Shown here piece by piece: positions 5,463 through 17,285 of a stretch of DNA of 64,000 nucleotides; positions within the stretch are counted from its first letter, which is position 1; each line of letters begins with the position of its first letter. The stretch lies in the NCBI RefSeq assembly GCF_056712565.1, contig NZ_CM160072.1; one strand, given 5' to 3'. Below the pieces are notes generated by a model, which ran no database searches, was not told the DNA's origin, and saw only the letters and a list, made by a program, of their open reading frames with translations. The position numbers and the translations under genes were made by a program.

Positions 5463-5669
5463 ATGGCTACCCCTGTTTCGCTGATGGATGACCAGATGGT
5501 CGACATGGCGTTTATCACTCAACTTACCGGCTTAACCGATAAGTGGTTTTACAAACTCATCAAAGATGGGGGCTTTCCTGCCCCCATCAAAATGGGGCGC
5601 AGCTCCCGCTGGCTGAAAAGTGAAGTGGAAGCCTGGCTGCAGGCGCGTATTGCACAGTCCCGTCCGTAA
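5463..5669 (+). CDS. alpA: AlpA-family prophage/island transcriptional regulator
   Basis: 68-aa product MATPVSLMDDQMVDMAFITQLTGLTDKWFYKLIKDGGFPAPIKMGRSSRWLKSEVEAWL...; the long upstream ORF extension (4959-) is a frame artefact. Confidence 0.85.
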   Translation: MATPVSLMDDQMVDMAFITQLTGLTDKWFYKLIKDGGFPAPIKMGRSSRWLKSEVEAWLQARIAQSRP

Positions 5670-5748
5670 TTTCTGACCGTTATCCGTTCACCCGCAGCAG
5701 ACGTAATCTCCGGCCTGCCGGCGGCATTCTGCTGCCTGTTATATCCCC

Positions 5749-6366
5749 GTGAGGAATATGAAAATGAAACAACAGTATCAGACCCGCTACGAATGGCTCC
5801 ACGAAAGCTACCAGAAATGGCTGACCGGCTTCACCCGGCACGCCGTATTCTGGGGCGTGTGTCATCCGAATATCTACTACTTCCATAATCTGACGCCCGG
5901 TTGGGTGTCATTCAATGGTGAAAAACCGGAGATTGCCATCGTACCCCAGAGCCTGCACCGGCTGATTTATGGCCCTGACAAACGGGCCACACCGCCCCTG
6001 GATGATGATCTGATAGTGAATTTATGCACCAGTGAACATCTGCTGGTTCATCATCCGATGCTGGAAGGCATTCTCCTGTCTGAATGTGAACGTCTGAGGC
6101 AGCGTTCTCTGGCAAATAAACTGATCAGCCTCTTCCGTCAGTTTGGTGGCACGGAGTTGCGCCTCAAACTGGTCTGGCTTTGCTGGCTTGATTTAATGAC
6201 CGGAAACTGCCTTGACGACTGGACGGAGAATCTGAAACGGAAATCAGAAAAAGAGCTGGAGGAATGGATCATCAACCGTCAGAAGCAGAGCGCAGCACTG
6301 ACGGATCTGATGGATCAGTACGTGCTCCTGTCATACCGCACAACGGTTGACGATAAGCGCACCTGA
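5749..6366 (+). CDS. Inovirus Gp2-like island protein (hypothetical)
   Basis: 205-aa ORF immediately after alpA, the position this family occupies in CP4-57/CP4-44-type islands. Confidence 0.6.
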   Translation: MRNMKMKQQYQTRYEWLHESYQKWLTGFTRHAVFWGVCHPNIYYFHNLTPGWVSFNGEKPEIAIVPQSLHRLIYGPDKRATPPLDDDLIVNLCTSEHLLVHHPMLEGILLSECERLRQRSLANKLISLFRQFGGTELRLKLVWLCWLDLMTGNCLDDWTENLKRKSEKELEEWIINRQKQSAALTDLMDQYVLLSYRTTVDDKRT

Positions 6367-6687
6367 TGCCAGTTGTTTCAGGGAAGCTGGTATCCGGGCA
6401 GGGTGCCAGGGCTGACTGAACGGCCTGTCTGCCTGCCGTTTCGCTCTCCGTGCGTTCTGTCACACGCTGCACCTGAACGCCGGACTGCGGGCACGCAGAC
6501 AGGAAAGTCGCAGGCTGGAACTTCTGACCGGCGGGTATCAGTTATATGCCTGTTGATTCATCACCACCACGCAGCTCCTGAGCTTTAGTTCATCACCGAT
6601 ATTCATACATCTGAATATCGGTGATGAAATCCCCATAATAATCAATCATCTAAGTCTGAAGCATAATGGAGAAAAACTGCTCACCGG

Positions 6688-8241
6688 TTACTTCGCTCTC
6701 AGCTTATTGTAGTGATAACCCGAGGTAAAAATACCAGAGACATCAGACAACTTTAAACTGGCTATCTGGGGAAGCAGAACATACATGGTTTTTCCTTCCG
6801 GCACGACAGAAAGCCTGAACTGAGATTCAAGAATGTTCAGCAATGCGTTCAGTTTTTTCCTGTTTCTGAACCGGCCCGGGCCACACTGGAGAATATAATT
6901 TTTCCTGACACGGGGCGGGCATTCTCCGCGGCACTCCTCAATGAGCCAGTCGAACAGCTCCTCGGCGTCCTTCTGCTGCAGTTCAGATTCATCAGGTAAC
7001 GCAAATAATTTTTTATATTCATCTGTGTACCACGAACTTATTACGACAGCAGACGTCATGATATCGGCAGAGATTTTCCCTTCACCATAGCTGAAATACT
7101 GAAATAACGCTGCAATTCTTGCAATGTTTTCTGTTTTTTTTGAAACATGTCCCCGAAACGGGCTTAAGGGTCCGGAAGGGGATAAATCCTGCTCCAGAAC
7201 ATTATAGTGCTCAATAAATATTTTTTGCGCTTCAGGCGAAAAATGCAGACAATACCGTTCATCCTCACTGGATTTTTCAATACTGCCTCTGGCCAGTTCC
7301 ATTAATCGTTCATGAAATGCCGTTAATGATCCTCCCGGAATCACAGCTCCGTTAATAAAGCGTTTCCCCTGCGTGGTTGCAGGTTTACTGATAAGACAAC
7401 GGGCAAGAAAACCACTGTCCCTGGCAACAGAACCTTTTCGCTCCATATATCGGTCAAAAAGACCGGGTTGCACCATGAGGGATAACGTCATTCTGGCATT
7501 TTCAATCATCTGTTCGGGTTCATTCTTTCTGTCCACAGACAATACAGAGCCATCCCACATTTTGTTAATAAAAGGCAACTCAGACAGGGTATATCCATCA
7601 AATATAATACCGGCTTCATCTGACATAATACCAACTGAACGCCATTTACCACAAAGCTGATTCTTAATTGCCGCAGTCGTGGCATCATTAAAAATGAATT
7701 TATACCTCACAGGTTCTTCCGCACTGTTTTTCTGAAGTACTTCCAGTTGTCTGAGGGTTTCTGACTCATCCGCGCCTTTGCGGAGTTCTTTATTCAGTTT
7801 TGACAACAATGCTTTTTTCTGAGCCTTTAAAAGCTCTTCCTTGTTTTTCCAGACAGCCAGTTCACTTTTGTATCTGGAATATAACTGCATCTCCTGCTGG
7901 TACAGGGGCTTCATTAATAATTTGTCCACTGCGGTTTTTCGTTCTCCGGACTCGGCAAGCGTCAGGAAAAAAAGAGAGACCGGCCCCCGCAGTGTATTCA
8001 GTCTGCAGACATCAATCAGATTCTGGCAGACAAGTGAAACAGCGCCCAGGGCAGACGCTGCCACAAGCCCAAGGGGAGCCTGCGTAATTTGCTGAGCTTC
8101 AATAACGGCATCACGAATGAGTGGAGGCAGCGAACTCAGGGGAAACTCATCACAAGGCTGACCGAATGACATAGTAACCTCACTATACACAGATATAAAA
8201 GCACTGCAATTCTGGCTATTAATAGCAAAAATAGCAGTCAA
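6688..8241 (-). CDS. YfjI-like island protein (DUF3987 family); true start may be internal (about 8172)
   Basis: 517-aa ORF; size and context match yfjI-type genes of CP4-57-like elements; contains an A8/T8 homopolymer at 7134-7141. Confidence 0.6.
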   Translation of the reverse strand: MTAIFAINSQNCSAFISVYSEVTMSFGQPCDEFPLSSLPPLIRDAVIEAQQITQAPLGLVAASALGAVSLVCQNLIDVCRLNTLRGPVSLFFLTLAESGERKTAVDKLLMKPLYQQEMQLYSRYKSELAVWKNKEELLKAQKKALLSKLNKELRKGADESETLRQLEVLQKNSAEEPVRYKFIFNDATTAAIKNQLCGKWRSVGIMSDEAGIIFDGYTLSELPFINKMWDGSVLSVDRKNEPEQMIENARMTLSLMVQPGLFDRYMERKGSVARDSGFLARCLISKPATTQGKRFINGAVIPGGSLTAFHERLMELARGSIEKSSEDERYCLHFSPEAQKIFIEHYNVLEQDLSPSGPLSPFRGHVSKKTENIARIAALFQYFSYGEGKISADIMTSAVVISSWYTDEYKKLFALPDESELQQKDAEELFDWLIEECRGECPPRVRKNYILQCGPGRFRNRKKLNALLNILESQFRLSVVPEGKTMYVLLPQIASLKLSDVSGIFTSGYHYNKLRAK

Positions 8242-16336: not shown

Positions 16337-16558
16337 ATGAAAATCATCACCCGTGGCGAAGCCATGCGTATTCACCGTCAGCATCCGGCATCCCGTCTTT
16401 TTCCGTTCTGTACCGGCAAATACCGCTGGCACGGCAGTGCTGAAGCGTATACCGGTCGTGAAGTGCAGGATATTCCCGGTGTGCTGGCCGTGTTTGCAGA
16501 ACGCCGTAAGGACAGTTTTGGTCCGTATGTCCGGCTGATGAGCGTCACCCTGAACTGA
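16337..16558 (+). CDS. yeeT: DUF987 family protein (YeeT/YkfH/YfjZ-like)
   Basis: 73-aa MKIITRGEAMRIHRQHPASRLFPFCTGKYRWHGSAEAYTGREVQDIPGVLAVFAERRKDSFGPYVRLMSVTLN. Confidence 0.8.
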   Translation: MKIITRGEAMRIHRQHPASRLFPFCTGKYRWHGSAEAYTGREVQDIPGVLAVFAERRKDSFGPYVRLMSVTLN

Positions 16559-16720
16559 TGTTCCGTCACCCGGAAAACGAGTACGACTGGCAGAGCTCAG
16601 ACGCCGCTGTGGATGAGGTCCTGCTCATCAACGAATACACCTTTACCGAAGCCGGTCTGCGCGCCGGCTGACCCGTCATCGTTAAACTATCATTCACCGA
16701 TTTTCTGTGAGGATTTTATC

Positions 16721-17089
16721 GTGTCAGACACACTTTCCGGGACAACGCATCCCGATGACAATGACGACCATCCCTGGTGGGGACTACCCTGCACAGTGAC
16801 GCCCTGTTTCGGCGCCCGTCTGGTGCAGGAGGGTAACCGGTTGCATTACCTTGCCGACCGTGCCGGTATCAGAGGCCGGTTCAGAGATGCGGATGCGTAC
16901 CCTCTGGACCAGGCCTTTCCGCTGCTGATGAAACAACTGAAATTAATGCTCACCAGTGGTGAACTGAATCCCCGCCATCAGCATACCGTGACACTGTATG
17001 CGAAGGGGCTGACCTGTGAAGCCGACACCCTCGGCTCCTGTGGTTACGTTTATCTGGCTGTTTATCCGACACCTGAAACGAAAAAGTAA
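16721..17089 (+). CDS. cbeA: CbeA/YeeU-family type IV antitoxin (GTG start)
   Basis: VSDTLSGTTHPDDNDDHPWWGLPCTVTPCFGARLVQEGNRLHYLADRAGIRG...; GAGG RBS upstream of GTG. Confidence 0.8.
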   Translation: MSDTLSGTTHPDDNDDHPWWGLPCTVTPCFGARLVQEGNRLHYLADRAGIRGRFRDADAYPLDQAFPLLMKQLKLMLTSGELNPRHQHTVTLYAKGLTCEADTLGSCGYVYLAVYPTPETKK

Positions 17090-17178
17090 ACCACCAGAAT
17101 AACCTTCTGCTCCGGCCTGGTGTTTTCACCACGCCACTGTCCCATTTTTTATCTCTGCATATCAGGAAAATCTTCAGT

Positions 17179-17285
17179 ATGAAAACATTACCCGACACGC
17201 ATGTACGGGAGGTATCGTGCTGCCCGTCTCCAGTCACCATCTGGCAGACACTGCTCACCCGGTTACTGGACCAGCATTCCCTGAT
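17179..17285 (+). pseudogene. cbtA: cbtA/yeeV-family toxin gene, truncated after ~35 codons
   Basis: MKTLPDTHVREVSCCPSPVTIWQTLLTRLLDQH matches the toxin N-terminus, then the frame diverges into low-complexity sequence; right-hand junction of the island. Confidence 0.65.

Follow-up and report, generated by a model that had tools for sequence, protein, structure and literature searches.

What is the block of genes that runs from alpA to a truncated cbtA in a 64,000-nt stretch of an Escherichia coli chromosome (RefSeq assembly GCF_056712565.1, contig NZ_CM160072.1; hereafter the window)? It encodes an intact antigen 43 adhesin (Ag43; gene agn43 or flu) and an intact YeeP-family GTPase. The first-pass annotation proposed a separate CP4-44-like island that lacks an integrase and was immobilised by erosion through insertion sequences (IS) at both ends. 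Our comparisons point elsewhere. Positions 5145-17277 are very likely a conserved CP4-type backbone module inside the composite leuX island (KpLE2 or GI-leuX), a fixed fossil whose edges were created by two ordinary deletions.

The module is a segment of the leuX island

Gene calls were taken from the RefSeq annotation of strain HS13-1 and carried over to window coordinates. Among complete E. coli genomes, positions 1-24000 are 100% identical to HS13-1, SF-468, MCJCHV-1 and avian pathogenic E. coli (APEC) strains. At least 80% of this 24-kb region is found in one place in 438 of 5426 complete genomes, the set over which the junction counts below were also taken. Genomes that are identical over this region carry fecIRABCDE on the left and mtnK-yjhU-sgc on the right. 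This places the block between leuX and fim, with fec/IS1 on one side and yjhU-sgc on the other.

In HS13-1 and SF-468, the leuX tRNA gene and intB, which encodes a P4-type integrase, are found 23.6-25.2 kb to the left of window position 1. The intervening DNA holds IS3, IS4, nanXY, IS911, a BCCT transporter, IS600/ISEc52 and fecEDCBARI. The fec and sgc genes are known from KpLE2 at leuX (PMC3032704), and the dihydroxyacetone phosphate (DHAP) shunt has been placed at the end of the leuX island (PMC10986504). The supposed separate island is an internal segment of the leuX island, with leuX and intB ~24 kb left of the window.

The block carries the genes of a CP4-type backbone: AlpA, YfjI/DUF3987, GTPase, DUF932, antirestriction, RadC-like, DUF987 and type IV toxin-antitoxin genes. 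A tblastn search matched eight of the 11 module proteins to CP4-57, in the same order and at 50-77% identity, and six to CP4-44, at 64-99% identity. The gene order from alpA to the cbtA fragment is indeed the signature of the CP4-44/CP4-57 family, as the first-pass annotation had recognised.

Two deletions define the edges

The right junction lies at 17276/17277. Relative to strain EC958, the reference for the size of this deletion, the window has 11,986 bp fewer. The match stops at cbtA codon 33 and resumes at 17277, which fuses the toxin gene to DNA 740 bp upstream of mtnK. Base-level alignment with EC958 revealed no IS sequence at or near the junction and no overlap of the aligned segments. 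In EC958, cbtA is followed by DUF5983 and DUF957 genes, helix-turn-helix (HTH) fragments, an Eco31I-family restriction-modification system, McrBC, a glycosyltransferase fragment and then the mtnK-upstream DNA. This more widespread deletion, exact in 453 genomes, would have removed ~12 kb comprising the rest of cbtA, the yeeW-like and DUF957 genes, the Eco31I-type restriction-modification system and McrBC.

The left junction lies at 5144/5145, where base-level alignment shows 4,382 bp fewer than in strains 7/2 and 19KM1766N, the references on this side. One endpoint is inside the IS66 tnpC gene, not at an IS terminus, and the other is 318 bp upstream of alpA. They share an exact 4-bp microhomology, TATC, within an imperfect match of 9/11. 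IS66 was a casualty and not the agent of this deletion, because the endpoint is internal to tnpC and lies at the TATC microhomology. Before alpA, 7/2 and 19KM1766N carry a complete IS66 (tnpA, tnpB, tnpC), two zinc-ribbon genes, a Gp2-family gene and small open reading frames (ORFs). The less widespread deletion would have taken ~4.4 kb, including tnpA, tnpB, the zinc-ribbon genes, the Gp2-family gene and the small ORFs. Two different probes located the left junction in 99 genomes. Names among them (ST95-32, an APEC O2:K1:H4 strain, SF-468) hint at a lineage resembling sequence type (ST) 95.

These junctions bear directly on the first-pass proposal, in which a self-contained CP4-44-like island originally carried an integrase and attachment sites (att) of its own beside alpA. 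Its left flank is crowded with fragments of IS1, IS3, IS5 and IS66; the annotation confirms the truncated IS66, IS3 remnants and IS1 that were originally noticed and adds the IS5 fragment. The window furthermore contains no integrase for the module, no tRNA gene and no att repeat. However, the right junction is free of IS sequence, and a left endpoint internal to tnpC with 4-bp microhomology is not an end made by a transposase. Left of alpA, sister genomes have not an integrase but an intact IS66 and further backbone genes, and the leuX island that surrounds the block brings an integrase gene of its own. The edges do not fit IS-mediated erosion at both ends, and we consider a once self-contained island very unlikely.

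Strains 7/2 and 19KM1766N have the right junction and lack the left one. Together with the counts (453 versus 99), these two intermediate genomes suggest that the right deletion preceded the left. Across the genomes that carry them (99 and 453), the two junctions occur in identical form at a single chromosomal site, which argues for vertical inheritance. Junctions 5144/5145 (99/5426) and 17276/17277 (453/5426) are clean lineage markers that could serve typing or the reconstruction of island history.

The integrase is distant and very probably defective

The leuX-island integrase gene intB lies ~30 kb left of alpA, beyond the window. Read from its native ATG, intB encodes MALTDIKVRAAKPTDKQY and then a stop in both HS13-1 and K-12, with TAG at codon 19. 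The K-12 gene is a pseudogene with this same TAG allele. The Prokaryotic Genome Annotation Pipeline (PGAP) calls an intact 402-aa integrase (WP_223362169.1) from an internal CTG start at 29755-31020 of the HS13-1 locus analysed, and does the same in SF-468. This call seems to be an artefact of annotation and could lead automated screens for intact integrases astray. Judged from its reading frame, intB is very probably defective.

The window offers no substitute. ARAGORN detected no tRNA gene in the 64 kb, and the only tyrosine recombinases are the fimbrial switch invertases FimB (43841-44443) and FimE (44921-45517). The 3' end of leuX has no match in the 64 kb, either as a 25-mer with up to 3 mismatches or as a 16-mer with up to 2. 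No direct repeats of at least 16 nt bracket 5145-17277, and a repeat scan of 800-22200 returned short chance-level pairs besides one 42-nt pair at 871 and 2064. Neither attL nor attR repeats are present in the window. The original observation that the alpA side lacks an integrase and a tRNA gene holds for the window. The flank search for att-like direct repeats proposed at that stage found none, so the window does not contain an intact integrase with its att repeats.

We infer that the module could not excise alone, with intB ~30 kb from alpA and carrying a nonsense codon 19. The alpA gene is intact, yet it would lack an integrase close by that it could activate. As first proposed, the element is very probably immobile, but not through IS erosion. 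"Integrase-less" is accurate insofar as the window holds no integrase for the module; the label is not distinctive, since CP4-44 likewise has none, and intB lies outside the window.

Could the module still be mobilised in trans, by a shortened IntB or a paralogous P4-type integrase acting with AlpA? PGAP does call a 402-aa IntB ORF, several CP4-like places exist in these genomes, and alpA is intact; in K-12, AlpA overproduction has been used to remove CP4-57 from the chromosome (PMC3105296). On the other hand, there is no attR-like repeat for any integrase, the same intB nonsense allele is fixed in K-12 and the window lineage, and the junctions are identical at a single site in the 99 and 453 genomes. 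We regard residual mobility as extremely improbable.

A stronger competitor is tandem accretion: a second P4-like element would have integrated at leuX separately from the fec part and lost its integrase and att sites long ago, leaving the module as its remnant and making intB non-cognate. The CP4-57 toxin gene lies within ~200 bp of the right end of that prophage, whereas the window and EC958 have more island DNA past cbtA. This DNA (the restriction-modification system, McrBC, mtnK, yjh and sgc) fits stacked elements, and this backbone is also found at further loci, where its cargo differs. However, an internal att-like copy of the leuX 3' end is absent from the 64 kb, and no second integrase remnant is annotated from leuX to alpA in HS13-1, SF-468 or EC958. 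Distance from an integrase is by itself no evidence for a second element: in FDAARGOS_1267 at least 14 kb of metabolic cargo precedes the backbone, and no integrase is in view. An integrase distant from alpA is not unusual for this backbone, given that genome and the integrase-free CP4-44. We consider tandem accretion unlikely, if the most credible of the alternatives.

Four points weigh against a leuX-island module shaped by two deletions. The role of intB as the cognate integrase is presumptive; the ~30 kb between it and the module is full of IS elements, and the module may have come in on its own. Translation from the internal CTG could formally yield an active integrase with a shortened N-terminus. 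The order of the deletions was deduced from the genome counts (453 versus 99) together with two example genomes, not from a phylogeny. Finally, deletion polarity takes the EC958 and 7/2 arrangements as ancestral, which leaves the exact former content less secure. For cbtA and IS66 the polarity is secure because both genes are visibly truncated.

A disarmed toxin-antitoxin module

The distal end of the module does not encode a functional CbeA/CbtA-family pair, as the antitoxin is intact and the toxin is reduced to 33 codons. The truncated cbtA frame remains open across the junction (17179-17409) and would encode a 76-aa chimera of 33 CbtA residues and 43 residues from formerly non-coding DNA. 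The toxin-antitoxin module appears to be disarmed, which would make the CbeA-family antitoxin an orphan.

This orphan could still matter because K-12 CbeA/CbtA paralogues are reported to cross-neutralise (PMC5371832). The 24-kb query (1-24000) has a median of 21 places per genome, IS copies included, and genomes carrying it appear to contain several CP4-like places. The antitoxin may persist in an anti-addiction role, neutralising paralogous CbtA-family toxins that other CP4-like islands in its genome encode.

Gene content of the module

The features of the module and its flanks are listed in Table 1. A translation check indicates that the module ORFs are all open, with no internal stops. The AlpA-like protein is identical in sequence to WP_000235217.1, which is named as AlpA family; its score for the NCBIfam "excise" domain falls under the cut-off of that model. 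The YfjI-like protein is 53% identical to K-12 YfjI.

The GTPase shares 50% identity with YfjP across its full length, and its ORF translation includes a GKSGAGKS P-loop. The yeeP gene of K-12 is an annotated pseudogene that matches only residues 108-290 of the window GTPase. The earlier contrast between an intact copy here and a pseudogene in K-12 therefore stands. The GTPase, antirestriction, RadC-like and DUF932 genes still look functional.

The gene list of the first-pass annotation has the correct order, but it omits the frameshifted DUF905 gene, and its "gp2-like" label for the 200-aa ORF is unsupported. This ORF has no match in Pfam (even at E <= 10), NCBIfam or PHROGs. Compared by BLASTP with the protein annotated as Gp2 family in strain 7/2, it gave E = 0.52, and profile searches were negative. 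The genuine Gp2-family gene, seen in 7/2 and 19KM1766N, sits within the 4.4 kb deleted from the window. The 200-aa ORF is also found directly downstream of alpA in all four related islands examined (EC958, 7/2, 19KM1766N and FDAARGOS_1267).

Table 1. Features of the CP4-type module and its flanks, in window coordinates
Feature	Position	Strand	Basis or remark
IS1 copy, transposase pseudogene	37-804	+	Counterpart of K-12 IS1F beside fecI/ykiE; start estimated from K-12 IS1F
IS-scarred cargo	805-4154		Annotation
IS3 fragments	1113-1211 and 2145-2276		
AriR/YmgB-like gene	1550-1807		
IS5 fragment	1932-2062		
Phytase-like esterase	2558-3916		
IS66-family tnpC, C-terminal 990 nt only	4155-5144	-	Junction at 5144/5145
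AlpA-family HTH regulator/excisionase-like	5463-5669	+	PHROG excisionase/regulator families, best E = 1.3e-9
200-aa conserved hypothetical	5764-6366	+	No family match
YfjI family (DUF3987; PHROG "DNA helicase")	6688-8172	-	Pfam DUF3987 E = 1.6e-95; phrog_2373 E = 5.5e-82
Intergenic, no annotated gene, 1.2 kb	8173-9401		AT-rich (~40% GC); between divergent yfjI-like and GTPase genes
YeeP/YfjP-family GTPase, full-length, 290 aa	9402-10274	+	Small-GTPase model matches
agn43 leader/regulatory region	10391-10627	+	Rfam IS102 small RNA match, 74.6 bits (gathering score 46)
agn43/flu	10646-13765	+	1039 aa, intact self-associating autotransporter adhesin
DUF905, frameshifted pseudogene	13836-14031	+	Annotation
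DUF932 protein	14149-14967	+	YfjQ homologue, 73% identical
Antirestriction protein	15309-15782	+	YfjX/LfgA homologue, 75% identical
RadC-like JAB-domain protein	15798-16274	+	YeeS homologue, 99% identical
DUF987 protein	16337-16558	+	YeeT homologue, 97% identical
CbeA/YeeU-family type IV antitoxin, intact, 122 aa	16721-17089	+	89% identical to K-12 CbeA
cbtA toxin stub, first 33 codons	17179-17277	+	Annotated CbtA fragment
mtnK-mtnA-aldolase-GRP transporter (DHAP shunt)	18017-22181	+	Right neighbour, still leuX island

Ag43 and its predicted phase switch

Ag43 scores 1912.9 bits against the NCBIfam Ag43 equivalog NF033177 (cut-off 1200). It aligns to K-12 Flu without gaps over all 1039 residues, of which 987 are identical (95%), in agreement with the initial view that the gene is intact. 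Three GATC sites precede agn43 at 10393, 10412 and 10425; they are spaced 19 and 13 nt apart, exactly as upstream of K-12 flu. A MAFFT alignment of the yeeP-flu spacer had suggested a differing GATC layout, which the direct coordinates ruled out. The adhesin is most likely expressed phase-variably through a Dam/OxyR-type switch of three GATC sites and an IS102/IsrC-type leader.

The gene-free spacer

At least 1856 E. coli genomes contain the spacer at 8173-9401 over 80% or more of its length. The copy in the FDAARGOS_1267 island, which occupies a different locus, is 98.5% identical to it. A search of Rfam at E <= 1 yielded only a chance-level match, and the largest ORF in the spacer is not above 64 aa. 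Promoter predictions within it are at background level, and the scan gave seven terminator-like sites (~2.5 expected), mostly outside the spacer. The possibility that it is a decayed copy of the gene found at the same position in EC958 was rejected, as tblastn returned nothing. Our guess is that it is a silenced regulatory spacer. That the orphan antitoxin neutralises paralogous toxins, or that the spacer holds an unannotated regulatory element or RNA serving the divergent yfjI and GTPase-agn43 units, strikes us as a long shot.

Neighbouring features

The cargo left of the module contains two 42-nt direct repeats (871-912 and 2064-2105, 93% identical) that bracket the AriR/YmgB-like gene and IS fragments. 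They look like remnants of IS3-family ends. EC958 lacks exactly the DNA between them, a loss consistent with recombination between the repeats.

Far to the right, the invertible fimS switch (45566-45892) lies between fimE and fimA. It is bounded by the 9-bp inverted repeats TTGGGGCCA at 45566-45574 and 45884-45892. Its orientation is opposite to that in the MG1655 reference sequence.

Comparison with known islands

CP4-57 of K-12 is collinear with the module (alpA-yfjI-...-yfjP-yfjQ-...-yfjX-yfjY-ypjJ-yfjZ-ypjF). Its intA is directly beside ssrA and two genes from alpA, and it has no Ag43. The yfjI gene of CP4-57 is on the same strand as alpA, whereas the yfjI-like gene of the window is on the opposite strand.

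CP4-44 of K-12 shares the order yeeP-IsrC/IS102-flu-...-yeeS-yeeT-cbeA-cbtA. Its Ag43 is 95% identical to that of the window, and its RadC-like and DUF987 proteins 97-99%. It occupies another locus, near cobU/yeeA, and lacks the alpA and yfjI part. The yeeP gene of CP4-44 is 5'-truncated and its cbtA intact, whereas in the window the GTPase is intact and cbtA truncated. CP4-44 also has yeeR where the window has the DUF905 pseudogene, DUF932 and antirestriction genes. Like the module, it has no integrase, and its excision was not detected (PMC3105296).

The FDAARGOS_1267 island, at its different locus, runs from zinc-ribbon genes through Gp2, Hha, alpA, the 200-aa ORF, yfjI, a 1.2-kb gap and the GTPase to Ag43.

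GI-leuX is a genomic island of the ST131 strain EC958 in which the restriction-modification system is variably present (PMC4659465). It shares its site with the window, together with the phytase-like esterase, IS66, alpA, the GTPase, Ag43/Cah, DUF932, antirestriction, RadC, DUF987, YeeU/CbtA and mtnK. EC958 keeps the 11,986 bp missing at the right junction, with full cbtA, DUF5983, DUF957, the Eco31I-type restriction-modification system and McrBC. It also keeps ~4.4 kb on the left, with full IS66, zinc-ribbon genes, Gp2 and Hha. Unlike the window, it has an ISEc12 insertion and another gene in place of yfjI, and it lacks the AriR-like segment. This IS21-family ISEc12 copy lies between the DUF987 and antitoxin genes (4693-7272 of the EC958 locus analysed); an insertion of this kind is also present in the 24-kb region of a TUM1857 genome.

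KpLE2 of K-12 has the same flanks as the window: fecI-ykiE-IS1F on the left and yjhU-yjhFGHI-sgc-yjhPQ-topAI-...-fimB-fimE on the right. Window positions 1-804 are 99.6% and 22124-45601 are 99.9% identical to it. K-12 MG1655 lacks 805-22123 (21,319 bp), the shared sequence breaking off exactly where IS1F ends on its right side; the IS1 at ~37-804 marks the left limit of this 21.3-kb segment in the window. Missing from K-12 are the AriR-like gene, the phytase-like esterase, the truncated IS66, the CP4-type module and mtnK-mtnA-aldolase-transporter. Of the GRP sugar-transporter gene, K-12 retains no more than the final 58 nt. The gap bears the hallmark of a deletion next to IS1 that took place in the K-12 lineage, making KpLE2 a 21.3-kb, IS1-flush deletion derivative of the window arrangement.

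We conclude that the feature is an already described segment of the leuX island whose architecture holds nothing new. Both this copy of Ag43 and the DHAP-shunt genes next to it belong to the well-known leuX island of E. coli of the extraintestinal pathogenic (ExPEC) type.

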